The notes: generated from the sequence alone by a model not told the origin. Shown: positions 2,606-64,000, numbered from the stretch's first letter. The stretch: DNA of 64,000 nt from Armatimonadota bacterium (GCA_016869045.1 VGFC01000003.1:2170-66169); one strand, 5' to 3'. Program-made: numbers and translations.

Positions 2606-5600
2606 CTACCCCTTCGGCAACGCGTGCCACGGCTCGCGGAGGCTGCGTACGAGGCGCGTCGTGCAGGCCTTCACTTGGGATTCCTCTGCAACCAGGATGA
2701 TCGAGAAGCACCGGTCCTGGTCAATCTCCAGCCGGATCGACCCGCCCCTGACCGGCGCCTCGATCCGCTCGTACTCCACCCACTCGCCGCCCCTGACCTC
2801 GCCGACGAGCGCGACAGGCTTGCTCCACTCCGCGCGCGTGTCGAGCCGCACCGTGCCCTCGGTGAGCGGGAGGACGCACAGCTGCGTGGAGCTGCGGACA
2901 TCTTGCCCGTCGAGGGAGTAGGACATGAAGTGCGCACCCTTCCCGTCCTCCAACGCCAGTAAGGCCGAGTTCTTCGCCCAGACCATGCAGCCGGTGCGGT
3001 GCGGGGTGAGTTCGAGGGGCGGGGCGCCGTCCGCCGTCCGCGCGTTGACCTTGGCGTCGGTTGGGTTCACCCACACCTCGCCGCGCGCCGCTGTGCCGGC
3101 CAGGGGCACGGACAGCGGCAGGGCCGCCCCGAGGGCGTCCCTCGCAGCTCCTGTGTCTCCCAGCACTGTCCGGTACACCAGGCTGTTGCGCGCGGCGATC
3201 CCTTCGGCAAAGCCTTCGTCCCGCTCCAGCGGCCAGGTGCAGAAGAGCACGCGGCCCTTGCCCAGCGCGTTGCTCAGGAGCACCGGCGTCTTGTCCGCGT
3301 CCGTTGCCGCGACGAGGACTTGTGCCCCGGTCGGCTTCACGACGATGGCCGGGTTCACCGTGATCTGTTCCCCGCCGATCTCGGCGGGCAGGCCCGTCTT
3401 CTCATCGCAGGCGACGTTGGGGTAGCGCTCGGCGACGAACTCGACACCACATAACTCCTTCAGTCGGTCGGTCAGCGTGCGCGTGCGTAGCATGTCGTAG
3501 GAGACGTCTCCCGAGACGTACAGCGTGCCGCCGGCCTTCACCCAGTCGAGCAGCTTGGCGCATACGTCATCGGGGATCTGGTAGGGGATTGGGTAGAAGA
3601 TCACCTTCGCTGAGGGGGGAATCGCCTCCAGAGAGCACTCATTCAGCGTCCCGCAGCTCACGCCCATCTCCTGCAGCGTGCGGAAGCATGACAGCGTCGC
3701 TTCGAACACCGTCCACACCGGCTGGCCGAGTCGGTGCGTGTCGGGGGTGAGCACGTAGACGCTGGGCGGCTCGTAGCGCCGCTCGAACTGCCGGAAGGTG
3801 AGCCCCGCCGCGCGGTAGACGTCCAGGCAGTCCTTCTTCACCCAGTCGCCGGGGTAGACCATCCCCCACGGGAAGATCCACTCGACGTTGTCCTTCCAGT
3901 CCCAGTTGTGGATCTTGGAGGCGCCGAGGCCCCAGCCGTAGTGGGTGATCGCGAGCCAGAGCTGCTCCTGCTGCTCGTCGGTGCGGGCGATGTGATAGCC
4001 CCAGTCCTTGCCACCGCCCCAGGCGGGGTGCGTCTTGCAGCCGAACTCGCCGGCGCTCATCGACTTGCCGCGCTCGCGCAGGTCCGCATGGCGCATCACC
4101 GAGGGGAAGCGGGCGATGTCACGCTCGGGCTTGTCGAAGTAGCCGATGTTCGCGCAGGTGTGGTCGCCGATGGCCTGGATGATGTCGATGCCCGGCCCGG
4201 GCGTCTGGTAGTACTCCGACGTGATCGCGTGGTGCTGATCGACCTCGCGAATCGCGCGCACGTGCCGGTTGATCCAGCGCGTCATCAGCTCCACCTTGAA
4301 GCGCGCGAGGTCCATGCCGCGCACATCGTCCCAGCTGTCTGCGCCATACTCCTGTAGGGGCACGTGCCCCAGCGGGCCCGTCACGCGCTCGGGCTTCCAG
4401 GCGGCGGCGAGCGTCTCGTCGGTCGCGTATCGAGTCTTCAGAAACTCGTTCCACAGGCGCTCGACATCCGTGCGCGGCGGCTCGCCGCCACGCTCTTCGG
4501 CAAGCCGCAGGTTGTCGTCCAGGCGGAGCTGGAAGTCCCCGTTGATGTACCAGAGAATCCCCGGCACGTCCTTGTAGCGCTTCACGAACGCCTGAACCCA
4601 GGCCGCCTCCCTCTCCAGCACATCGTCCTCAACCACCACGTTCGCGCCGATGAGCAGCCCCGGCATGTAGACTTGCCCGTACTGCTGCGCGAGCTGCACC
4701 ATCGCATCGGTCTTGCGCAAGAGCGACTCGGGCCACTCGTACGGCGGGCTCTGGCTCACCGCGCTGACCTGCAGGTTCTCGGGCAGGTTCATGCCGGAAT
4801 CGCGCATCGTCTCGAAGTCGCGCTTCCAGACCAGCGGGTTCTCATGCGCCGAGTAGAAGGCGAACGAGAAGCTGTCCGTGCCCTGCAGGAAGTGCTCGCG
4901 CCCGTTCAGCCGGAAGAGGTTGCCCTCCAGCACGCAGTCCGGCCCGGACTTCACCACCTTCTCATCCCACACGCAGAAGCCGGTCTCCATCTTGTCCGAC
5001 GGCCTCTCGTCCAGGCTCAGCGTCGCTTCGACACGGTAGAAGTCTGCCTCAAAGCGCCCCGGGCTCCACTCGACGGTGAACTCGCGGGTCTCGTCGGGTT
5101 GGAGTGTAGCGCCCGGCGAGTGGAGCTGGATCGGCTTGCCCTTGCCGTCGGCAGTGACCTGGAAATCGACGCTGACGGCTTGGGGAGCCGGCCCCCAGTT
5201 GCTGACCTGCACCTTGATCTGCACCGGCTCGCCCTGGCGGTACGTGGCGTAGTTCGTCTCGAGGTTGTGCAGGAACGTCTCGGTGACGAGCGCATCCACG
5301 ATGGGTACGAGCAGCTCGGTGGCCGCCGGCGCATCGCGCGGGAAGAAGTCGAAGTCCGTGGAGCCGAAGATCGCCCAGGCCGACCGCGCATAGTGGCCGC
5401 CGTAGCGGTAGGTGATCGAGGCGGCGCTGCCGCGCAGGCGCTGGTAGCGGTCGTAGCAGTTCACCAGCGGGACGCGCCGCGCGTCGTCGTAGCCGAGGAC
5501 CGTCGTCGCCGACCAGCCCTGCATCGGCGCATCGGCGACGAAGTTCTGAGGCACGATGTACTGATCCGGCGCGGCCCTCGCGAACTCCACGCGCTTCAGG

Positions 5601-7075
5601 GGGAACTGCGCGTCGAACACCCCGATCTGCTCCGGCGCCACCTGCAGTCCGTCCAGCGGCGCGCCGCGGGCCGTGTTCATGATGAGTTCACTCGGCCCGG
5701 CCGCCGCCAGCTTCACGCGCGCACACTTGGAGCCAGAGTGCGGAGTCGCCCCGACGATGCTGGCGAGGTCCTTCTGGGTGCGGAACCAGTTGTGGGGGCG
5801 GCGGTCGTCGGGGGCCGTCACATTCTCGAAGCCCCCGTCGGTGACGTACTCCCGGCCCGCGTCGTCGGTGACCGAGATGTCGTCGATGGACGCCGTGCCG
5901 GTGCAGCGGAAGAGCCCCGCCTTGATCTCGACCACCGCCGCGTTCTGGTCCACCCTGAAGGCATACTGGTTCGCGGTCCAGTCCTGGTCGCCGACCAGGT
6001 GGAGCGTGTCGCGCCAGCTGCCGAGCTTGCCGTCCTTGTCGAACTGGTAGACGGCCAGGTAGGCAAAGCCGCCCGTGACGCCCCGGCAGCGGAGGTGCCC
6101 GCGGAAGGTCATCGCCTTCCCCGGCATGTCGGGCTCGACGGGGATGCGGTAGAACCACGAGCACTCCTCGGGCGTGGGCTTCGCCGCCGCCGGCGGCTCG
6201 CCGCCGACCAGGTTGTTGAACGCATACCCGCCCATTGTGAGCATGTTGCCGCCGCCACGCAGGAAGCGCCGGAACGCATCGGCGGCCGGCGCGGGGAAGG
6301 TCTCGCCATAGGGCAGGATCACTGTGCTGAAGCGCTCGGGCGTCAGGAATAGCCGATCCGCAAGCTGCGCCGCGCTGATGAGCGTGGTCTCGTAGGGCTG
6401 CCCGGGGATCGCGTCGAGAATCTCCTTCAGGTACTCCGGCTCCGAGCCGACGCCCACGACGGGCAGGTCATCCTTCAGGATCGCGATTCCCGGCTTGCCG
6501 CCAGCGGCTCCGGCAGACGGCGGCTGGGCGATCTCGCCGACGTCGGCGGCCTGCTCGCCCTCCACCAGCGTGAAGTCATCCACCCACAGCGTCCCCGAGG
6601 CCTGGAACAGCCCGAAGGGGATCACCAGCCGCGTCGTCTCCTCACCTATCGTGAAGGTGTGCGTGTGGCGCTCCCAGTCGAGCGTGCCCACCGGGTGCGT
6701 GAAGTCGAAGTAGGCGACGTAATCCCCGAACTTGTCGTACTGGTACATGGCGACATACCCGTACCCCTGCACCCCCTCGTTCGCCACGATGTCCTGCGCC
6801 CTCACCCACGCCGACACCGTGTAGGTCGCACCCGGCCTGAAGCCCTCAACCGTCCAGGAGCCGCTGCCGCTGGTCCGTTCGCCGGCCCTCGGCTCGACCA
6901 TCACCCGCACGCTGCGCTTGCCCGAATGCGCCACCTGATCGTCGAACGCCGCGCCGGCGCTCAACGTCAGGTCCAACGGCCGGCGCTCGAAGTCGCCGTG
7001 CTGAATCAGCGAGACGGGCTGGGCGAGGCCGACTGAGGCAAGCAGTGCGGATGCAACGACGAGACAGAGGGTCAT
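2606..7075 (-). CDS. Large secreted glycoside hydrolase (~1490 aa) with N-terminal CBM4/9-like carbohydrate-binding domain and TIM-barrel (clan GH-A-like) catalytic region
   Basis: Signal peptide MTLCLVVASALLASVGLAQP (start moved to internal ATG at 7075); CenC-like CBM region; many W/Y-rich glycosidase-like blocks. Exact GH family not assignable by eye. Confidence 0.6.
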   Translation of the reverse strand: MTLCLVVASALLASVGLAQPVSLIQHGDFERRPLDLTLSAGAAFDDQVAHSGKRSVRVMVEPRAGERTSGSGSWTVEGFRPGATYTVSAWVRAQDIVANEGVQGYGYVAMYQYDKFGDYVAYFDFTHPVGTLDWERHTHTFTIGEETTRLVIPFGLFQASGTLWVDDFTLVEGEQAADVGEIAQPPSAGAAGGKPGIAILKDDLPVVGVGSEPEYLKEILDAIPGQPYETTLISAAQLADRLFLTPERFSTVILPYGETFPAPAADAFRRFLRGGGNMLTMGGYAFNNLVGGEPPAAAKPTPEECSWFYRIPVEPDMPGKAMTFRGHLRCRGVTGGFAYLAVYQFDKDGKLGSWRDTLHLVGDQDWTANQYAFRVDQNAAVVEIKAGLFRCTGTASIDDISVTDDAGREYVTDGGFENVTAPDDRRPHNWFRTQKDLASIVGATPHSGSKCARVKLAAAGPSELIMNTARGAPLDGLQVAPEQIGVFDAQFPLKRVEFARAAPDQYIVPQNFVADAPMQGWSATTVLGYDDARRVPLVNCYDRYQRLRGSAASITYRYGGHYARSAWAIFGSTDFDFFPRDAPAATELLVPIVDALVTETFLHNLETNYATYRQGEPVQIKVQVSNWGPAPQAVSVDFQVTADGKGKPIQLHSPGATLQPDETREFTVEWSPGRFEADFYRVEATLSLDERPSDKMETGFCVWDEKVVKSGPDCVLEGNLFRLNGREHFLQGTDSFSFAFYSAHENPLVWKRDFETMRDSGMNLPENLQVSAVSQSPPYEWPESLLRKTDAMVQLAQQYGQVYMPGLLIGANVVVEDDVLEREAAWVQAFVKRYKDVPGILWYINGDFQLRLDDNLRLAEERGGEPPRTDVERLWNEFLKTRYATDETLAAAWKPERVTGPLGHVPLQEYGADSWDDVRGMDLARFKVELMTRWINRHVRAIREVDQHHAITSEYYQTPGPGIDIIQAIGDHTCANIGYFDKPERDIARFPSVMRHADLRERGKSMSAGEFGCKTHPAWGGGKDWGYHIARTDEQQEQLWLAITHYGWGLGASKIHNWDWKDNVEWIFPWGMVYPGDWVKKDCLDVYRAAGLTFRQFERRYEPPSVYVLTPDTHRLGQPVWTVFEATLSCFRTLQEMGVSCGTLNECSLEAIPPSAKVIFYPIPYQIPDDVCAKLLDWVKAGGTLYVSGDVSYDMLRTRTLTDRLKELCGVEFVAERYPNVACDEKTGLPAEIGGEQITVNPAIVVKPTGAQVLVAATDADKTPVLLSNALGKGRVLFCTWPLERDEGFAEGIAARNSLVYRTVLGDTGAARDALGAALPLSVPLAGTAARGEVWVNPTDAKVNARTADGAPPLELTPHRTGCMVWAKNSALLALEDGKGAHFMSYSLDGQDVRSSTQLCVLPLTEGTVRLDTRAEWSKPVALVGEVRGGEWVEYERIEAPVRGGSIRLEIDQDRCFSIILVAEESQVKACTTRLVRSLREPWHALPKG

Positions 7076-7167
7076 GGGAGGCCTCCGTTGGGGGCGGGTG
7101 GTGGGGTGTTCCACGGAGGCGCGAGCACGTCCTGCCGGGACGCACGGGGGCCGATGAGGTCAGGCTG

Positions 7168-7389
7168 TCACAGGAGCCGCACGAACTCCTCCACCGTCAG
7201 GCCTGCATCGCCAATGAGGCCCCGCAGCAGACCGGGGCCGACGTTCCGATGCAGGGGGACGGCAAGCGTGTAGTCGTGTCCCGGTTTCTGCATCATCAGA
7301 TGACTGCCGCGCATACGAACGCCTCGCCAGCCGGCGCGCTCGAAGGCCCGAGCGATCTCGTCGCCCGAGAGACCCCGGGGAAGCCTCAT
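7168..7389 (-). CDS. hicA: HicA-family toxin (mRNA interferase) of type II toxin-antitoxin system
   Basis: 73 aa; YcfA/HicA-like sequence (GSHLMMQKPGHDYTLAVPLHRN); 4-nt overlap with upstream hicB. Confidence 0.8.
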   Translation of the reverse strand: MRLPRGLSGDEIARAFERAGWRGVRMRGSHLMMQKPGHDYTLAVPLHRNVGPGLLRGLIGDAGLTVEEFVRLL

Positions 7390-31344: not shown

Positions 31345-31508
31345 GGGCGTGATGAATCACGCCCCTACACGGGGGCACGATGAATCGTGCCCCTACATGA
31401 CGGCGATCCACGGCCCTGCGCGAAGTAGGGGCGCGATTCATCGCGCCCGGTTGTGTAGAGGCGCCATTCATGGCGCCCGCCAACCCTTCTCATGCAGCGC
31501 CCCTACAG
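31345..31508. repeat. REP/BIME-like cluster A: 4-5 palindromic units of consensus TGTAGGGGC-NN-GATTCATC-NN-GCCCC in both orientations (REPIN-like)
   Basis: Units at 31345..31369, 31371..31397 (GTAG head on minus), 31425..31448, 31454..31478 (head on plus), partial 31497..31508. Stem dinucleotides vary (GT/AC, AC/GT, GC/GC, CC/GG) but keep complementarity. ORFs called over this region (e.g. 31250..31585) are spurious. Confidence 0.7.
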
Positions 31509-37528: not shown

Positions 37529-37548
37529 CTCCGCATCTCCTGCCGTCT
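37491..37548 (-). repeat. Tandem GGAGATGC GGAGATGC GGAG direct repeat at the 5' end of the 34475..37528 gene
   Basis: Minus-strand sequence ...GCAGGAGATGCGGAGATGCGGAGTAGT...; provides two in-frame ATGs each preceded by GGAG. Confidence 0.4.
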
Positions 37549-40500
37549 CACACATCGCGCATGTCATCGATGGGGAACTCCGTGCCGCTCTGGGCCCAGG
37601 GGTCGGCGACGAGCGGCTGTGGCGCGGGCGGACGTGGACCCGTGTCGCCATAGGGCCCCGACATGCCCGTGCGCCAGCCACCACCGAAGCCGCCCGGGTA
37701 GCTGCCGTAGTCGCCATCGTAGCCCCCGTACCCCTCCAGGCCGCCTCCGTAGCTCTCTCCGTAGGGGCCGCTGTAGGGACTGAAGGCCGAACCGGTGCCG
37801 CCGAAGCTCGGCATCCCTTCGTCGAAGCCACCGAAGTCGCCGGAGAGCCCTCCGCGCGAGTAGTAGCTGCCGCCTCCTGGGAAGTAGCTGCCGCCGCCTC
37901 CTGGCAAGTAGCTGCCGCTGCCAGGGAAGCTGCCGCCCCCGCCTCGGTAGTAGCGGCCGCCGCCGAAGCCTCCCCCCAGCGAGCCGAAGCCCGGCTGACC
38001 GATGTAGCCGTAGCTGCCATAGGAGCTGGAGGCCCCCGTCCCCATGAGCGGGCTGTAGTTCCCGGGCCCGAAGAAGTCGCCGGAGGAGGCGCCACTCCGC
38101 GGCAAGCTCAGCCCACCCAGGAAGCCGCTGCCGTAGCCGCCCCTGCCGTAGCCCATGAGGCCGCCGTAGCCGGGCGTGATCGGGCGGTTCAGGCCCTCGC
38201 CTTGGTCCCGCTCGCCCCGGAGGGTGGACTGGAAGTTCGTGCTCAGCGAGAAGACCAGCAGGTTCGTCGTGTAGTCCTCGCCCTGATAGGTGTAGCCCGG
38301 CGTCGTGCCGCCCCCGGACTGTGACAAGCGCGAGTTGTTGTTGATGAACTGCCAGCCCAAGTTCAGGCCCACCGAGTTGCTCAACTGATACTGGAGCCCG
38401 ATGTCGGCGGTGGCCTTCATGAAGTCGGCGAAACCGCCCTTGAAGTCGCTGACCCCGAACCGGGCCGCCAGGCGCGCACGTTCGGCGAGGCGGTACTCGA
38501 CATTCGCCATGACGTCAAACAGGCTCGTGTCAACGAGGTCCGCGACCTCGTTCTGCCCGAAGCCCGAGTAGTTCGGGCTCACCCCCCACTGCCGGTTGAC
38601 CGAGAGGCCGTAGGTGAAGGGGCTGTTCTGCGGGCGGTAGGTGCCGCTGAAGGTCAGGCTGTTGTTCACCACGCCGCCCCGGCCGGCATCGAGGAACTGC
38701 AGCAGGTCGGAGCCCAGAGAGACGTTGAAGGCCATGTCCTGGTTCGGGAGCCAGCTCAGGGAGACGTTGCCGTAACGCTGGTTGCTGTCGGCCAGATAGC
38801 CGACCGACCCCGCGCTGTCGTAGCTCCGCAGGCCGAAGTTGGCGTCCACGCTCAGTGAGCTGCTCGGCTGAAACGAGATGCCCAGCCGCGCCGACGAGTC
38901 GCGGTACTGGTTGAGTTCGGGTTCCTCGTCGTCGGGTGTCCCGCCGCCACCCCCGATCGGCGCGCGGACCACGTCCCCCGTCAGCCCAAACGGATAGCCG
39001 CCCGGGTTCCCGCCCCAGCCGCCGCCCATCCCCGGCGTATAGCCGCCGAAGCCGATGCCACCGCCGTAGAAGCCGCTCGTGACCGCCCCGAGCGATTCGG
39101 TCTGCGTCCAGTCCAGGTTCACGCTCAGCTTCTGCATCGGTTGCCAGCGCGCGCTGACCTGGAAGTTGCTGGAGTCGCCGCGCTGGTCCTTGTACTGGCT
39201 GCGCGAGGTGTTGCTGTTCCAGTTCGTCGCGAAGGCCAGCTTGTCGGTGGGCATCCAGGACGCGGCGAGGCTGAGCGACTGCGTGTCGCTGGACTGGGCC
39301 GAACCGAAGGGGTCGCTGTCGTCGCCGGTGGTCGTGCCGGCGTAATTCTGCCGCGTGCTGATCCATCCGGCATGGAAGGTCATCGGCGTCTTCGGCGTCT
39401 TCGGCGAGTAGTCGAGGCTCGCGTTCAGCGTCTCCAGCAGGCTGTCGCCGCGGCTGCCCCCCGAGTTTGTCATGCTCTGCCGGGACAGGCGCAGCGAAGG
39501 CCAGCCCGGATAGCTGACCGATAGGTTCGAGTCGTGGCGCACCGCCCGGATGTCCAGTGTCTTGGGCGTCTCGTCCTCCGTCTGCGACCGGCCGTCCCCG
39601 TAGTTGTAGTCGCCCCCGTAGTAGCCACCGTAGCCGCTGTAGCCGTGGGTGTATCCCGAGTTGGTCTTGACATCTGAGAAGGTGTGCGCGAACTGGATGT
39701 GCTGGTTCGGGCGGAAGCCCACGGCGGCGTTGAGGCCCTTCTCACTCCGGAAGAAGCCCACCGTATCGACGTATCGGAAACCCGGATCGATGTTGCGGTA
39801 CTGGAGGTTCACGTCGAGTTTCGACCCGCGGCTGAAGCGCAACCCGCCGCTCAGCGCGTTGCCTGCCGCGGCGCCGCCGACCGGATCGCTGCGGGCGAAC
39901 GCCGCGTCCCAGCTCAGGCTGTTACTCAACTGGTGCCGCAGCGCCAGCCCGGTAACGGCGCTGTCGCCGGAGAAGCTGTCGCCCGGGCCAATCTGGTAGT
40001 AGTACTTGATCCGCACGACCGACGTCGGCGGGACGATCCGGCGGAAGATGATCCGACCGATCTGGCGGAGCGAGTCGAAGTCCACCCCCTCGCGCTGCTC
40101 CACGTTGTCCACCAGCACGATCAGCGCCTCCTCGTGGAGGACCTTCTCCTTGCCGTTGATGATGGCCTTAGCCCCGTAGGCCAGGATGGGGCTGAAGCGG
40201 ACGTCGAACGGCCCTGTCGAACCGGAGCCGTAGAAGATGTCGTCCTGGAAGCGCGCGGTATCGGCGGCGCCGCCGGCGCCCGAGGTGTGCTCCAGGCGCG
40301 TCAACACCAGCTGCAGGCGGTCGCCCAGCAGCGCGCTCTCCATCTGCAGGCCCTGCGTGGTGCCGCCCGATTCGTAGTTGGTGGCCGACTGGTAGCTGAC
40401 CGTGATCGTGTGGGTACTGGGGATGATCCGGGGGGACTTGCCGGGCACCTCGAAGAGGAGTTGGCCGGTGTCGTAATCCAGGACGTAGTCCACCCCGAAG

Positions 40501-41111
40501 TAGACCACGTCCTCATTGATCTTCACGCGCTCGGTTCCCTCGACGATCGGCGTGAAGGTCAGGAAATACGGCCCGGACGTGTTGTTGCCCAGGAAGGTCT
40601 GTCGCCTGACGAGACCTTTCTCCTTCGACTGGAACGCGCGGAACAGGAAGTTCGGCCCGACGAGTTGGTCGAGCTGCCAGCCCTTCAGGCTCTTGGTATA
40701 GGAGGCGAACTCATTCCCCGCCAGCCGGACGTTCAGGTCGCCCCACAGCAGCGCGGAGTGCTTGCTCTGCCACCCAAGCATGAGGCGGTTGTCGTTGTAC
40801 CCGTAGCCGCTATTGGCGATGTGAGCCTGAACGCCGAAGTTCTTCCAGATCGGGCCGAAGACGTCGAAGCTCGTCGTCGCCTGCATCATCCCCGTGTTCC
40901 AGAACTGCGACTCGTAGGCCTCCCGCGAGCCCTGCGTGAAGTCGCCGCGCACGGAGAAGTCGCCCCGCCCGGTGACCTGCAGGCCCTTGAACAGCCCGAG
41001 ACCATCCAGCGCATCGCCGATGGAATCGAAGGCATCCGCGCCGGCCCGACTCGTAGGACACAGCAGCAGACAGGGGATTGCGAGAGCGAAGGCGGCGCCC
41101 CAACCGCGCAC
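37548..41111 (-). CDS. Giant (1187-aa) predicted outer-membrane beta-barrel protein with N-terminal tandem beta-domain repeats and Gly/Tyr/Ser-rich low-complexity C-terminal region
   Basis: Signal peptide MRGWGAAFALAIPCLLLCPTSRAGA; at least two internal copies of the G..(S/T)GP(F/Y).(L/V).F(S/T)PI(L/V)... domain; long run of amphipathic beta-strands (LSVNLDWTQ, LGISFQPS, VSLSWLPNQ, ANVEYRLAE, IGLQYQLSN, VGLNLGWQF, LLVFSLSTNF); C-terminal GGYGSGFLGG...GGSYFPGGGSYYSRGG... tail. Confidence 0.55.
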   Translation of the reverse strand: MRGWGAAFALAIPCLLLCPTSRAGADAFDSIGDALDGLGLFKGLQVTGRGDFSVRGDFTQGSREAYESQFWNTGMMQATTSFDVFGPIWKNFGVQAHIANSGYGYNDNRLMLGWQSKHSALLWGDLNVRLAGNEFASYTKSLKGWQLDQLVGPNFLFRAFQSKEKGLVRRQTFLGNNTSGPYFLTFTPIVEGTERVKINEDVVYFGVDYVLDYDTGQLLFEVPGKSPRIIPSTHTITVSYQSATNYESGGTTQGLQMESALLGDRLQLVLTRLEHTSGAGGAADTARFQDDIFYGSGSTGPFDVRFSPILAYGAKAIINGKEKVLHEEALIVLVDNVEQREGVDFDSLRQIGRIIFRRIVPPTSVVRIKYYYQIGPGDSFSGDSAVTGLALRHQLSNSLSWDAAFARSDPVGGAAAGNALSGGLRFSRGSKLDVNLQYRNIDPGFRYVDTVGFFRSEKGLNAAVGFRPNQHIQFAHTFSDVKTNSGYTHGYSGYGGYYGGDYNYGDGRSQTEDETPKTLDIRAVRHDSNLSVSYPGWPSLRLSRQSMTNSGGSRGDSLLETLNASLDYSPKTPKTPMTFHAGWISTRQNYAGTTTGDDSDPFGSAQSSDTQSLSLAASWMPTDKLAFATNWNSNTSRSQYKDQRGDSSNFQVSARWQPMQKLSVNLDWTQTESLGAVTSGFYGGGIGFGGYTPGMGGGWGGNPGGYPFGLTGDVVRAPIGGGGGTPDDEEPELNQYRDSSARLGISFQPSSSLSVDANFGLRSYDSAGSVGYLADSNQRYGNVSLSWLPNQDMAFNVSLGSDLLQFLDAGRGGVVNNSLTFSGTYRPQNSPFTYGLSVNRQWGVSPNYSGFGQNEVADLVDTSLFDVMANVEYRLAERARLAARFGVSDFKGGFADFMKATADIGLQYQLSNSVGLNLGWQFINNNSRLSQSGGGTTPGYTYQGEDYTTNLLVFSLSTNFQSTLRGERDQGEGLNRPITPGYGGLMGYGRGGYGSGFLGGLSLPRSGASSGDFFGPGNYSPLMGTGASSSYGSYGYIGQPGFGSLGGGFGGGRYYRGGGGSFPGSGSYLPGGGGSYFPGGGSYYSRGGLSGDFGGFDEGMPSFGGTGSAFSPYSGPYGESYGGGLEGYGGYDGDYGSYPGGFGGGWRTGMSGPYGDTGPRPPAPQPLVADPWAQSGTEFPIDDMRDV

Positions 41112-41205: not shown

Positions 41206-42279
41206 TCAGGGCGTCAGGTGGGCCTCGACAACATCGAGGTTCCGCTCCGCCTGAGCGCGGAGTTCGTCGGCGAAGGCGGCCCGGGCCGCGGCGGTCGCGT
41301 CGCGCTCGGACCAGGCTCGGTCGATGAGGTGGAGGACCTCCTCGAGGTCCGCCTCCAGGGGGGCCCACAGGGCGTGGGCGCCGCTGGCGAACGCCGCGAC
41401 CTTGGGGTCGTACGACAGCGCCACGAACGGCACCGCCTGCGCCGCGGCGAAGATGCACGCGTGAAGGCGCATCGCGATCACGAAGTCGAGGCTGCGCACC
41501 AGCCCCACCCACTGCGCCGGCGATAGCTCACGGTCCACCCCGACCGCGCGGACACCCAGCATCTCGGCCGCTTGCGAGGCGAGGTGGGTGTCCTCTTTGG
41601 CATGCAGCGCCAGTGGGACGATCTGCGCGCCGTGGCGCTCCGTGAACTGCTTGGCCGCCTCCAGCGCGTGGGTCAGCGCCGCCTCGGCGCCCTGCGCCTC
41701 ACGCAGCGCGAGGCCCACGCGTGGACCGCCCTCTCGCGAGGGCAGCCAGTGCGCCACATCCTCCGGCGGCGCCGGGTCCACCAGCGCGGCGAGGTCAGCC
41801 GTGATGGCGATGCTCTCGGCCGGCACGCCCATCTGGACGAGCAGCCCCGCGGAGTTGCCATCCCGGACGGTGATCCCCGCCGCCCGGCGGAACAGGCGAG
41901 CGGTCAGGGCGCGCGTCAGCCGGTGTCTCAGTGGACCGATGCCTTGGCCCAGCACGACGAAGGGCGTCCGTCGCAGCCTCGCCAGGGCCAGGATGCCCAG
42001 ATAGTACAGCGCCGACCGGACGCTGGTCGAGTCTTGGATCAGCCCTCCGCCCCCCTGCAGGACGAGGTCCGCCGCGCCGATCTGCCGCCAGAGGGTCGGG
42101 TAGTGCCGCCGCGGCGCCGCGTGCACGCCGTGGGCCGCGTGGGTCGCGGGCGGGTCGGCGGACAGGACGACCAGCTCCGCGTCGGGCCGACGGCGTCGCA
42201 GCCCGCCGAACATGCCCGCGAGGATCGCCTCATCACCCGCGTTGCCCAGTCCGTAGTAGCCGCAAATCAGGATGCGCAT
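41206..42279 (-). CDS. csaB: Polysaccharide pyruvyl transferase CsaB family
   Basis: Start at ATG 42279 (MRILICGYYGLGNAGDEAIL...); PF04230-like blocks (GGGGLIQD, LGQGIGP, MRLHA). Confidence 0.75.
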   Translation of the reverse strand: MRILICGYYGLGNAGDEAILAGMFGGLRRRRPDAELVVLSADPPATHAAHGVHAAPRRHYPTLWRQIGAADLVLQGGGGLIQDSTSVRSALYYLGILALARLRRTPFVVLGQGIGPLRHRLTRALTARLFRRAAGITVRDGNSAGLLVQMGVPAESIAITADLAALVDPAPPEDVAHWLPSREGGPRVGLALREAQGAEAALTHALEAAKQFTERHGAQIVPLALHAKEDTHLASQAAEMLGVRAVGVDRELSPAQWVGLVRSLDFVIAMRLHACIFAAAQAVPFVALSYDPKVAAFASGAHALWAPLEADLEEVLHLIDRAWSERDATAAARAAFADELRAQAERNLDVVEAHLTP

Positions 42280-42284
42280 GGGGT

Positions 42285-44279
42285 TCACGCGGCGTCGTCC
42301 GTATCCGGTACGAAGCGCCGCCGGAAGGCCTGCCAAACGCGCTCGCCGAGCTCCACCACGGCGTACAGCAGCCCGCCCAGGACCGCGCCAACCCACAGCC
42401 CGTGCAGCGTGCGCGCGACCGAGATCAGGACCGGTGTGTGGAGATGGCTGAACGTGTTGACCATCGACACCTGGCCGACCGTGCCGAGCGCCAGCAGCGC
42501 CCACAGGCCGCCCCGCTTCCCGGCCATCGCCCGCGCGACCGCGAGCACGAGGAGTGGGTGGCCGATCAGCAGCTCCTTCGTACGCGGTCGCACGCCAAAC
42601 ACGCGATCCAGCACCGCGCGGAACTGCAGCTCGAGGCCGGAGACACCAACCCCGCTCTCGTTCCCGCTACGCAGCAAGAGCAGCCCCAGACCCGCCACGC
42701 CGACCAACAGCAGCGCCGTGTGCCAGTACTTCACGACGGCCTGGCCGGCCACTCGCCAGCCGCGCAGGAGCGTCGTCAGCGGCGCCTCGCCCTCCGCGGC
42801 TCCGTGTCCGCCCAGACCCCAGCCGATCTGCAGCAGGAGCACGGCCAGCATGGGAACGAGATGCGAGATCTTCACACCGGAGAACTGGTCGAGCTTCACC
42901 AGGAATCGCGTGTCTGCGAGGCAGCCGATGATGAACAGGCCGGCCAGGAGACTGATGCCGGACGATGCGGCGAACAGCAGGAGAGCGCGGAAACTAGGGA
43001 CAGGCCCCAATTTCGGACATGGCGTCCGTCCGAAATTGGGGCCTGTCCCTAGTTTCCGCCCGACAGCAAGCGTCGGCAGCGCCAACGCGCCAAGAAGGGC
43101 GCAGAGCTTCGCCATCGGGGTGAGGGCCGCGAAGGCGCCAGCCAGCGCCAGCACCGCTGCAACTGCGATGATCGCGATCACCCAGAGCGGACGGCACCCG
43201 AGCAGTTCGAGGAGGCACAGACCCAGCGCGCCGATCACCCCGAGCATCGCCAGCCAGCGGAGGATCGCCGACACTTCGAGGCGCCCATACGGCTCCGGCG
43301 CACCCAGCTCGAAGCCGTGGGACTTCAGGCGGGTCGCGAGCTTGCTCACATACCCCTCGGCTGCGGCGACCGGGTCGGGCCCGCAGGGCTCGAACAGCCG
43401 AACGTAGCACGCGCGGATGTTGCGCTCGCGCACCGCCAGCGTGAAGCGATCCGCCGCGCGCTGCACACTGGTGCCGAGCATCTCCGTCTCGTTGATGCTG
43501 TGCACGCGGATGAGGCTGTGCGGCAGACGCGAAGCCAGCGCCATGTCGCCATACTGCTTGCCGAACTCGACGTAGCCGAACAGTAGCCCCTGCCGCGCGA
43601 ACGCGTCGGCCACGCGGGCGATGTCCGTGGGATAGCCCGGGGCCGCGGTGCCGGCGAAGATCACCAGCCGCGCGTTGCGCTCCTTCGCGAGGGTCAGCGC
43701 GGCATCGGCTGCCTTCTGCCACTGGTTGCTTTCGGCAAAGGGCCGCGGGACGAAGGCCAGGCCGGCCTGGTTGATCTCCTGCACGGCGGACAGGGGATAG
43801 CCGATCCCGATGTCGAGGATGTCGGCGGGGTCACCGGATCGCAGGTCGAGCCGGTACGTGCGCGCCGCTACCGGAGCGAAGGTTGCCGCTCGCTGCCCGA
43901 GGCGCTCGACGAGGCTGCGATGCAGCCGCTGAATCGTCTCCGAGGGCCCGACGAACGAGGCGGTCGGTGGCGGATAGGGCGCCCCCTCATCGCGCGCGCG
44001 CGGCGCCGAGGCCACCTCACCGGCCTGCATGGCGGTGCGGAGGGTCTGCTCCGTGATGGCGACGTGGGTGGCGCCGGCCTTCTGCAGGCGCGTCAGCACC
44101 TCGCGCGTCGTGAGGCCGCCGACCGTGGACAGCTGACGGAGCTGGTCGTAGTCCAGGATCAGCGCGACGGTCCGGTTCGCGCTCTCCACGCGGACGCGGG
44201 CAGCCGCCGCCACGAGGGCGGCGCCTGCGCCGATGGCCAGTAGGATCAGGCAAGCGTAGCGGGCGTGGTTTGTGGTCAT
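42285..44279 (-). CDS. Multi-TM membrane protein (N-terminal periplasmic domain + ~10 TM), DUF5693-like partner commonly paired with csaB
   Basis: 664 aa; N-terminal TM then ~330-aa soluble domain, then many TM helices; immediately upstream of and co-directional with csaB; contains an in-frame 69-bp palindromic element. Confidence 0.5.
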   Translation of the reverse strand: MTTNHARYACLILLAIGAGAALVAAAARVRVESANRTVALILDYDQLRQLSTVGGLTTREVLTRLQKAGATHVAITEQTLRTAMQAGEVASAPRARDEGAPYPPPTASFVGPSETIQRLHRSLVERLGQRAATFAPVAARTYRLDLRSGDPADILDIGIGYPLSAVQEINQAGLAFVPRPFAESNQWQKAADAALTLAKERNARLVIFAGTAAPGYPTDIARVADAFARQGLLFGYVEFGKQYGDMALASRLPHSLIRVHSINETEMLGTSVQRAADRFTLAVRERNIRACYVRLFEPCGPDPVAAAEGYVSKLATRLKSHGFELGAPEPYGRLEVSAILRWLAMLGVIGALGLCLLELLGCRPLWVIAIIAVAAVLALAGAFAALTPMAKLCALLGALALPTLAVGRKLGTGPNFGRTPCPKLGPVPSFRALLLFAASSGISLLAGLFIIGCLADTRFLVKLDQFSGVKISHLVPMLAVLLLQIGWGLGGHGAAEGEAPLTTLLRGWRVAGQAVVKYWHTALLLVGVAGLGLLLLRSGNESGVGVSGLELQFRAVLDRVFGVRPRTKELLIGHPLLVLAVARAMAGKRGGLWALLALGTVGQVSMVNTFSHLHTPVLISVARTLHGLWVGAVLGGLLYAVVELGERVWQAFRRRFVPDTDDAA
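42989..43057. repeat. Perfect 30-bp inverted repeat with 9-bp spacer (69-bp palindromic element) inserted in-frame in the 42285..44279 CDS; MITE/RPE-like
   Basis: Left arm ggaaactagggacaggccccaatttcggac (42989..43018), spacer atggcgtcc, right arm is its exact reverse complement (43028..43057). 69 bp = 23 codons (RKLGTGPNFGRTPCPKLGPVPSF); ~57% GC versus ~68% background. Confidence 0.7.
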
Positions 44280-44955: not shown

Positions 44956-46066
44956 TCACTCACCCTCTCGTCCGGCGCTCGACTGCAGGTACGCCCGGAT
45001 GAACTCGTCGATGTCGCCGTTGAGAACCCCCAGTGCGTCTCCGACCTCGACACTCGTGCGATGGTCCTTGACCATCATGTACGGCTGCAGCACGTACGAG
45101 CGAATCTGGTTGCCCCACTCGATGTTGCCCTGATCGCCGCGCAGGGCGTTGATCTCGTCCTTCCGTCTCTGGCGCTCAAGCTCGTAGAGCTTCGCCCGCA
45201 GGATGTTCAGCGCCGTGCGCCGGTTCGAATGCTGGCTGCGCTCGTTCTGGCACGAGACGATGATCCCCGTCGGCAGGTGCGTGATGCGCACCGCCGAGTC
45301 CGTCTTGTTCACGTGCTGCCCGCCTGCGCCGCTGGAGCGGAACGTCTCGACGCGCAGGTCGTCGGGCTTGATGTCCACCTCGATGCTCTCGTCGATCTCC
45401 GGCACCACGTCCACCGCCGCGAAGCTCGTATGCCGGCGCTTGTTGGCGTCAAACGGCGAGATGCGAACGAGGCGATGGACGCCGACCTCCGCCTTCAGGT
45501 AGCCGTACGCATGGGTCCCGATGACCTGGGCGGTCACGTTGCGGAACCCCGCGCTCTCTCCGGGCACCGAGTCCACCACCTGGAACTTCAGTCGATGCCG
45601 CTCCGCCCACATCGAGTACATCCGCAACAGCATCTCCGCCCAGTCGCACGCCTCCGTCCCACCGGCGCCCGCGTTGACCGACAGGATCGCGTTGCTCCGG
45701 TCGTGCTCGCCCCCGAGCACCGTGGCCAGCTCCAGTTCTCCCAGCGTCGAGCGGGCGGCCTGAAGCCCCTCCTGAACCTCCGGCTCGACCGAGTCGTCCC
45801 CCTCCTCCATTCCCAACTCTACGAGCGTACGCAGGTCCTCGACATCCTGCTGCAGCCTGTCCCACGGCTCGATGAAGACCCGAAGCTGGCTGATCTTCTG
45901 CATGTGCTTCTGGGCCGCCTCGGGGTCGTCCCAGAAGCCCTCGTTCTCGATCGTCTTCTCATGGTCGGCCAGCTGCTGCGCCTTGCCGGCGACGTCAAAG
46001 ACGATCCCTCACCTTCGTGATGGTCTGGTGGAACTCGTCCACCTCGCGCTTCAGGTCAAGCAACAT
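44956..46066 (-). CDS. prfB: Peptide chain release factor 2 with programmed +1 ribosomal frameshift
   Basis: Frame 0: MLLDLKREVDEFHQTITKVRDRL then in-frame TGA within CTT TGA C; +1 frame continues DVAGKAQQLADHEKTIENEGFWDD...SGAGGQHVNKT (GGQ motif). Total ~369 aa. Confidence 0.85.
45988..46003 (-). promoter_or_regulatory. prfB autoregulatory +1 frameshift site (AGGGAUCGU CUU UGA C)
   Basis: In-frame UGA at 45997..45995 (minus strand) preceded by CUU and an SD-like AGGGAU, the canonical RF2 recoding cassette. Confidence 0.8.
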
Positions 46067-53600: not shown

Positions 53601-53666
53601 ACAGGATATGCAGGATGGGCAGGATGACTGCCTCCGCCGTCATCCTCCCCATCCTGCATATCCTGT
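53601..53666. terminator. Long near-perfect hairpin (28-bp stem, 1 mismatch, 10-nt loop) containing tripled CAGGATG motif; likely terminator for the aminotransferase gene
   Basis: acaggatatgcaggatgggcaggatgac-tgcctccgcc-gtcatcctccccatcctgcatatcctgt; sits 13 nt downstream of the 53679..54998 stop. Confidence 0.45.
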
Positions 53667-54998: not shown

Positions 54999-55224
54999 TG
55001 CGCGATACCTCGGGAGTTCAGGAGATCAGGAGTTCCGGAGCTGCGGAGTTCAGGATAACGGCGACGCCTTCGCCGTAGGAGCGCGGACGCCCTCGTCCGC
55101 TGCTGTGGCGGGAGGTGAGTCGTTGGTGTACGGCACGGCAACCGCCACCACCTCGAAGCCACCACCAACCAATCCAGCGGACGAGGGCGTCCGCGCTCCC
55201 ACACAACGACAACGACGTGCCGTC

Positions 55225-63741: not shown

Positions 63742-63811
63742 GGTTGGCGATGTGTCGAAGCTGGCGCTTCGACCTACGGCAGCGTTGTAGGACGGAGCGC
63801 CCGCTCCGTCA

Positions 63812-64000
63812 CTCAGTTCGCGTTCGGCTCCAGAGAGACGCCGAAGGCCGCCAGGAAGGTCAGCCCCATCACGTACCGGCCCATCGGCGACATGTGGACA
63901 CCGTCCTGCGTCAGGCGGGCCGGGTCTGCGGGGTCGGAGGCTTCCTGGACGAGACGGAACGTCTCGTGCATCGGGATCAGCAGGAGGTCGTGCTCCGTGG
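63812..64000 (-). CDS. Partial (C-terminal end only) SGNH/GDSL-like hydrolase
   Basis: C-terminal ...LTQDGVHMSPMGRYVMGLTFLAAFGVSLEPNAN* contains the DxxH block-V motif of SGNH hydrolases; gene runs off the window end. Confidence 0.35.

Follow-up and report, generated by a model that had tools for sequence, protein, structure and literature searches.

A perfect palindrome in frame within a DUF5693 gene, a probable member of a dispersed hairpin-repeat family of freshwater Armatimonadota

How does a perfect palindrome come to lie in frame within a gene for a multi-pass membrane protein, and what kind of element is it? The locus that raises this question lies in a 64,000-nucleotide stretch of an Armatimonadota genome (GCA_016869045.1, VGFC01000003.1:2170-66169; the whole stretch is called the window here), in which a gene of the DUF5693 family (42285..44279, minus strand) contains a 73-bp palindrome (42987..43059). 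A first-pass annotation of the window had proposed a candidate mobile or dispersed palindromic element resembling the Rickettsia palindromic elements (RPEs). This proposal is supported both by other copies of the sequence and by orthologues of the host gene that are free of it. The palindrome very likely belongs to a family of hairpin repeats, 65-73 bp long and dispersed in related freshwater Armatimonadota, of which one copy now resides in frame in the DUF5693 gene.

The palindrome and its dispersed copies

Using a repeat search, we recovered an inverted repeat with 32-nt arms (42987-43018 and 43028-43059) that are 100% complementary and separated by 9 nt, giving 73 bp in total. The first-pass annotation had described a perfect palindrome of two 30-bp arms, 69 bp in total; its perfection and the 9-bp separation of the arms are borne out, while its extent had been placed too short. 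The arm sequence was absent from 100 dinucleotide shuffles of the window, in agreement with the earlier view that such a palindrome is not expected by chance. Additionally, the RNA fold of the 107-nt region around the palindrome reached -78.6 kcal/mol (z = -11.9 versus shuffles). The G+C content is 55% for the 65-bp family core and 60% for the 73-bp palindrome versus 70% for the host gene, so that the element does lie below its background as first noted.

The family core occupies 42991..43055 (AAAYTAGGGACAGGCCCCAATTTCGGAC - 9 nt - GTCCGAAATTGGGGCCTGTCCCTARTTT), as defined by alignment and by an nhmmer match (E 5e-25). The window core departs from the family consensus at three positions; at two of them, a T>C and an A>G change compensate each other. 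Outside of the core lie a left outer stem, GCGG (42987..42990), identified by flank complementarity analysis, and a right outer stem, CCGC (43056..43059), identified by this analysis and the repeat search; the two pair with each other and are specific to this copy. The 9-nt loop (43019..43027) reads ATGGCGTCC on the plus strand and GGACGCCAT on the gene strand. In the family, the loop consensus is GGACGTCAT, which contains the palindrome GACGTC.

No second copy was found within the 64-kb window by a pattern search allowing up to 3 mismatches or by a profile search. Other copies, which the first-pass annotation had suggested looking for, were recovered when an exact 20-mer from the arm was scanned against JGI metagenomes, viral contigs and genome contigs. 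In the metagenomes, seven contigs from samples Ga0194110-113 matched, each with both arms at a 33-nt offset. BLAST showed that these contigs match the window solely over the ~70-bp element, and they collapse to five distinct loci with a G+C content of 66-69%, like the window. The shared 65-bp sequence is 95% identical at these unrelated loci, and additional diverged copies are found on the same contigs (L002 at 2899; L007 at 2000 and 2748). The scan of viral contigs with the 20-mer gave no matches. As a rough expectation, an exact 20-mer should match about once by chance against 596 Gb, both strands considered. The sole genome-contig match to the 20-mer GGGACAGGCCCCAATTTCGG, in a collection that does not hold the source metagenome-assembled genome (MAG), was a single non-palindromic coding match in a member of the Bryobacterales, and we rejected it as consistent with chance.

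The family core can be written as AAATTAGGGACAGGCCCCAATTTCGGAC-GGACGTCAT-GTCCGAAATTGGGGCCTGTCCCTAATTT and was exactly 65 bp in 10 of the 11 copies in a regular-expression scan, the exception being a centre-deleted copy on contig L016 (53 bp). Counts given below refer either to the nine full copies at six loci, window included, or to the 11 copies of the regular-expression scan and covariation alignment. Diverged and partly imperfect relatives of the repeat were also observed at 603-659 of L011 (GGGGACAGGCAACGATTTCGCG...) and 11110-11169 of L002 (GGGGACACGATCCCAATTCG...), and by their sequences indicate a probable wider superfamily across related Armatimonadota. We found no report of such a repeat from Armatimonadota in our literature search.

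Pairing of the arms and placement of the copies

To describe the pairing, we aligned the 11 copies over the 36 pairs of the long hairpin. In this alignment, 90% of cells are paired and 15 pairs changed on both sides, while none of the 36 pairs in the 11 copies carries a one-sided or G-U change. The covariation score of the long hairpin was above that of all 500 shuffles. The alternative fold, in which each arm pairs with itself, showed no compensation, and variable positions break its pairs. Complementarity also continues outside of the core, where 2-8 nt of one flank form the inverted complement of the other, on average 4.1 nt, versus 1.6 nt with permuted flanks and 0.38 nt at random genome positions (P < 5e-5).

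Copies persist between species and change symmetrically. In three orthologues of an imuB-like gene (88%, 70% and 69% identity), the corresponding site holds a version of the element, and two other orthologues carry short forms. The orthologous copies at the imuB site are still near-perfect palindromes (96-97% complementary arms) yet have changed sequences, including symmetric indels. The copy on L012 has 32-nt arms that are 97% complementary (GGCACCCATTTC / GAAATGGGTGCC). On L014 (7511-7592), a nested, expanded palindrome with 34-nt arms carries a symmetric duplication in both arms, and the L016 copy (3941-3997) retains 24-nt arms with its centre deleted and the inner stem lost. Additionally, a centre-deleted mini-palindrome at 5989-6015 of L012 still gives the imuB stop codon at a place where L007 holds a full copy.

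Because of the strict Watson-Crick symmetry, the symmetric indels, the outward growth of the palindrome and the inversion of the loop, we favor maintenance at the level of DNA rather than selection on an RNA fold. The arms would be maintained by arm-to-arm templated copying, that is, template switching, which would keep them complementary and extend the palindrome by a few bases into the flanks of each copy. Template switching at inverted repeats (quasi-palindrome correction) is reported to yield arm homogenisation, arm expansion and spacer inversion (PMC8794818, PMC8604942, PMC13100816), and this process fits the Watson-Crick homogenisation, symmetric changes, loop inversion and length-neutral outward growth seen here. 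However, template switching is a mutational process rather than a family of elements, and it leaves the arrival of the core at new loci unexplained.

The position of the copies relative to genes bears on the same issue. Of the nine copies, seven are extragenic and packed closely against gene ends. In four of these seven, the gene upstream takes its TAG stop codon from the repeat (arabinofuranosidase-like, URO-D-like, carB and imuB-like); several end 14-25 nt ahead of the next start codon, and one sits between convergent genes. Genes adjoining the copies encode an arabinofuranosidase, URO-D and oxidoreductases, or are carB, pyrF, imuB and dnaE2. This placement matches the distribution of repetitive extragenic palindromic sequences (REPs), including the donation of stop codons by repeat termini (PMC3733652).

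A functional RNA element, such as a stabiliser of mRNA 3' ends, an RNase III site or a terminator, could be kept by selection on transcripts, in which case the copy within the gene would be a by-product. The placement of most copies right after or overlapping the 3' ends of open reading frames (ORFs), with a start codon following shortly or with a convergent gene on the other side, is in keeping with such a role, and so is persistence at orthologous sites; Di Nocera et al. also argue that REPs act as RNA (PMC3733652). We nevertheless consider this explanation rather unlikely. The lack of any G-U or one-sided change argues against it, as does the orientation of the loop relative to transcription, which is split 4:4. 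A scan for promoters and terminators found none, with no terminator-like site in 42500-43500 and only TTT, rather than a T-run, after the stem. An Rfam search of the element returned just sub-threshold models of plant and animal miRNA precursors, a generic resemblance to long hairpins. Lastly, a transcript with a 32-bp duplex inside its coding sequence would be expected to suffer from it.

Acquisition by the DUF5693 gene

The host gene lies immediately upstream of csaB (41206..42504, minus strand; TIGR03609) and was assigned to its family by Pfam PF18949 (E 2e-140). Its reading frame had been reported as continuing uninterrupted through the palindrome, which translation and an end-to-end match to Pfam DUF5693 confirm. 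The 664-residue product is identical to MBM3471779.1 (FJX75_00735) from an Armatimonadetes MAG. Codons R408-R431 (42987..43058, minus strand) are written by the element and translate as RKLGTGPNFGRTPCPKLGPVPSFR; the inserted peptide RKLGTGPNFGRTPCPKLGPVPSF had been given correctly in the first reading. In an AlphaFold2 model, residues 410-429 have pLDDT values below 50 and form a coil between helices 386-410 and 427-453. Thus, the peptide of the element is predicted to be a disordered, tolerant loop between two membrane helices. The dN/dS of the host gene against its orthologue on L009 (91% nucleotide identity) is 0.195, and the lineage of the window shows no excess of change. The reading frame is still open and the gene looks functional, with a substitution pattern that points to purifying selection. 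Our literature search found no paper mentioning DUF5693.

Comparison with orthologues defines what the gene acquired. The DUF5693 orthologues are 658-661 residues long, with protein identities of 90%, 73% and lower. By protein alignment, the element is absent from 17 orthologues with identities down to 32%, and its residues coincide with the part of the membrane domain that is conserved least. At this position, the orthologues carry a different, mutually homologous loop, RRLPSIEAPFPRWSALGRG. The orthologous contigs L009 (91% nucleotide identity), L010 (84%) and L011 (77%) all lack the element while their flanks are colinear with the window. Since these relatives are free of the element and share the other loop sequence, the element-free state is ancestral, and the window copy appears to have arrived after the split from the relative that is 91% identical in DNA.

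At the DNA level, ~51 bp of the ancestral loop was lost and 69 bp of the element gained, a net change of +18 bp. The 17 codons lost and 23 gained leave a net increase of six, and the host protein has 664 residues as against 658 in orthologues. The first-pass annotation had proposed a pure in-frame insertion of 23 codons and suggested an alignment with orthologues to confirm it. That alignment did reveal the element to be missing from relatives at 91, 84 and 77% DNA identity; it did not reveal a clean gain of 23 residues, since 17 codons were replaced. The GCGG flank on the 5' side of the gene is ancestral by comparison with orthologue DNA; CCGC, which complements it across the element, is new.

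These data also bear on a classical miniature inverted-repeat transposable element, which would be a deletion derivative of an insertion sequence, moved cut-and-paste by the DDE transposase of that insertion sequence. Terminal inverted repeats, small size and dispersal all suit such an element. However, the check for target-site duplications suggested in the earlier reading turned out negative, with no direct duplication in any of the 11 copies and flanks that are inverted complements instead. Target DNA was deleted on arrival, and the internal sequence is nearly nil, consisting of a 9-nt loop. Additionally, among the exact 20-mer matches, all seven metagenome contigs have the arms 33 nt apart and none has arms flanking a longer insert that could be the parent insertion sequence. 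We therefore regard this origin as improbable.

The segment might instead be an old, protein-constrained part of DUF5693 that is palindromic by coincidence, or the product of a mis-assembly at a repeat; we consider this very improbable. An identical protein on five NCBI and JGI contigs argues against a one-off error, although these assemblies are perhaps not independent. The 17 element-free orthologues and the poor conservation of the loop speak against an old segment, and a chimeric join is contradicted by the sequences on both sides of the element, which are colinear and in frame with the same gene. The idea that the palindrome was made in place, by a single template-switch mutation of a local quasi-palindrome and with no mobile family, can draw on the capacity of template switching to create perfect hairpins (PMC8794818) and on the small net length change of +18 bp, but is refuted as the origin of the window copy by the 95% identical 65-bp sequence at unrelated loci and by arms that do not resemble the ancestral loop DNA of the orthologues, such that we retain template switching only for maintaining and extending the arms.

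Two related candidates were set aside. Evolution in place from the ancestral loop was rejected since the DNA of L009 and L010 holds no arm-like sequence at the site. Targeting of a pre-existing palindrome centre was not supported in the window, where the orthologues lack GCGGCCGC at the site.

How the reading frame survives can be read from the family consensus. When the consensus was translated in all frames, frames 0 and 2 encountered TAG (in AAATTAGGG) or TAA (in CCCTAATTT), whereas frame 1 was free of stop codons in both orientations and encodes KLGTGPNFG-xxxx-PKLGPVPNF. Thus, any copy that survives inside a gene must use this frame, and the shared peptide KLGTGPNF...KLGPVPNF results from the element having a single stop-free frame in either orientation. 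In the DUF5693 gene, survival would have come about through this frame and through the exchange of one flexible, Gly/Pro-rich loop for another. There, the 69 bp of the window copy took the place of ~51 bp in a loop between helices that is itself poorly conserved.

A second copy within an ORF conforms to the same rule. It lies at 2748-2812 of L007 in the ORF of an imuB-like Y-family polymerase, uses the same frame and reads KLGTGPNFRDDVPRKLGPVPNF. In an alignment with solved structures of Pol IV, its peptide falls where the canonical KLASD..KP.G.. segment would be and differs from it in length by ~2 residues, and distant imuB-like orthologues have an unrelated segment of ~21 residues at that site. 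In the imuB-like gene, ~21-25 codons became 22. Going by the alignments of these two cases, neither in-ORF copy is a simple addition; each has replaced a host stretch of similar length.

The surroundings of the second copy yielded further observations. L012 (4696-9422) and L007 (3-3340) each carry a mutagenesis cassette of imuB-like, DUF6504 and dnaE2 genes, and two copies of the repeat lie in and after the imuB-like gene of the cassette. By inspection, the imuB-like Y-family protein appears to lack the catalytic acidic residues, with LLLPRFQAEVE replacing the DMD..F motif.

Near the DUF5693 gene, the window contains an ORF of 1187 residues beside csaB (37548..41111, minus strand) with long Gly/Tyr/Ser-rich stretches of low complexity and no Pfam match; given the csaB-DUF5693 neighbourhood, its product may be cell-surface or S-layer-related. 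A separate site at 45994-46000 (minus strand), upstream of the ORF at 44956..45903 (minus strand), resembles the programmed +1 frameshift site of prfB (release factor 2). It consists of CTT TGA C after a Shine-Dalgarno-like GAGGGA and would explain the missing N-terminal part of the ORF as listed.

Relation to known repeats and mode of spread

Each arm of the palindrome can also fold alone into an 11-bp stem with one mismatch or bulge (CGAAATTGGGG / CCCTAATTTCG) and a 5-nt loop (z of -4.2 to -6.2), although covariation supports the long hairpin only and not these unit hairpins. Each of the nine full copies is a homodimer in head-to-head arrangement around a centre of 9 nt. At that centre, GGACGTCAT is conserved; its GACGTC reads CGTC on both strands, and TGTC / CGTC stands directly beside the unit stems. 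We assign the CGTC tag to the units tentatively, as a reading of the alignment. Because the arms face each other across GACGTC, the element has the form of a head-to-head doublet of REP-like units, the architecture of REPINs (PMC3116915). Each copy would thus be an inverted doublet of a ~27-nt unit, with each unit a small REP-like hairpin and the halves meeting at GACGTC; as such, it may be described as REPIN-like or as a homodimer of a CGTC-tagged REP.

Bertels and Rainey (2011; PMC3116915) described REPINs as hairpin doublets with compensatory changes. Similar to REPINs, the element consists of two inverted REP-like units in one long hairpin of ~70 bp, is dispersed and mostly extragenic as far as its nine copies at six loci show, undergoes compensatory hairpin changes, persists at orthologous sites and leaves decayed or deleted remnants. 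In contrast to REPINs, its consensus lacks a GTAG head, and no RAYT gene was seen among the genes adjoining its copies. Additionally, its spacer is 9 nt and its arms are perfect over 28-36 bp, while the spacers of REPINs are longer and less conserved.

The resemblance to CGTC-tagged REPs covers other features. CGTC families have been described from five phyla, mostly from alpha-Proteobacteria (PMC3733652). In the account of Di Nocera et al. (2013; PMC3733652), REP dimers inside genes encode 20-30 residues, stop codons can be contributed by the ends of REPs, DNA-repair genes, dnaE2 among them, hold many of the intragenic REPs, and a dedicated transposase for CGTC REPs is not known. The element shares with them a CGTC head on each half, a 5-nt unit loop, head-to-head homodimer organisation, intragenic dimers of 20-30 residues, one copy in a DNA-repair gene (imuB-like) and ends that supply stop codons. 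However, its units have stems of 11 bp with C-G / G-C as the first pairs, whereas the four described families have stems of 8-9 bp starting with A-T, and it lacks their CCA tail. By these descriptions of stem, first pairs and tail, the element stands outside of the four described CGTC families.

The comparison with RPEs made in the first-pass annotation proved apt, since RPE-4 and RPE-6 of Rickettsia are themselves classed as CGTC-tagged REPs (PMC3733652). Like the RPE-1 type (Ogata et al. 2000, as summarised in PMC10969869), the family places palindromic repeats in frame in unrelated housekeeping genes, with the added peptide at a structurally tolerant position. In that summary, RPEs are ~100-150 bp and are described as insertions, while the element is 65-73 bp and replaces a host segment. 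The resemblance to Rickettsia RPEs is behavioural only, and the host here is an Armatimonadota MAG.

Several other inverted repeats were noted in these genomes. GTAG-headed REP doublets, a family distinct from the one described above, occur in the window (31373-31448 and 63752-63816) and on L006 (6805-6877), for example GTAGGGGCGCGATTCATCGCGCCC facing an inverted partner; the doublet at 63752-63816 is 84% identical to one on L006. These doublets suggest that the genomes concerned also harbour a REPIN system of the RAYT type. The window also holds long inverted repeats of unrelated sequence at 53601-53666 (31-nt arms, 94%), which the ORF list suggests to lie between ORFs, and at 55075-55202 (43-nt arms, 84%). 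On L007, a second hairpin family is represented at 5951-6036 (40-nt arms, 100%) and 7148-7240 (43-nt arms, 98%) with the common outer arm GGGGTCACATCTTTAAATTT(T/C)AATCTT. The former is read through in frame (..GVTSLNFNLGLGTGLSVPRPRLKFKDVTP..), joining URO-D-like and GH130 domains in an ORF of 691 residues that may be a repeat-mediated gene fusion. Another inverted repeat on L007 (3454-3570; 58-nt arms, 84% complementary) lies in the apparent N-terminal region of a GFO/IDH/MocA oxidoreductase ORF, the Pfam domains of which begin only at residue 133.

As to how the family spreads, we suppose that copies are mobilised in trans by an enzyme. Several points weigh against our account of a dispersed and mobilised family. 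No transposase was found among the genes adjoining any copy, although no systematic Pfam scan of every ORF was made. Standard models of transposition do not account for the loss of ~51 bp of target DNA. Hairpins that are perfect over 30 bp should be unstable, and remnants with deleted centres do occur, yet many copies are perfect. Lastly, the copies at other loci might come from sister populations and not from the source genome.

Spread may alternatively proceed by templated patch replacement, in which copying from a hairpin donor, for example by ectopic template switching or with priming by microhomology, overwrites a target of similar length and arm copying then keeps the arms perfect. This possibility is suggested by the replacement of a host segment by both in-ORF copies, by the copy-specific complementary flanks and by the lack of target duplication. 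With two in-ORF cases behind it, we put it forward as speculative. Patch replacement, if true, would let hairpin repeats colonise genes with no need of a transposase.

On the reading favored here, this is a new family, in a phylum new to such repeats, of a kind already known, namely REP-doublet or RPE-like hairpin repeats, which can sit in frame inside genes. Among palindromic repeats of this in-frame sort, those of Rickettsia are the best documented and other phyla have yielded scattered cases; the behaviour now extends to freshwater Armatimonadota, which are known here solely from MAGs. The family offers a useful test case for the maintenance of repeats, having perfect arms of ~30 bp with Watson-Crick covariation between species whose host proteins are 69-88% identical, palindromes that grow into copy-specific flanks, and host sequence that is replaced and not merely interrupted. 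Annotators of this clade should expect KLGTGPNF..KLGPVPNF inside otherwise unrelated proteins, as well as stop codons, and even gene fusions, contributed by repeats.

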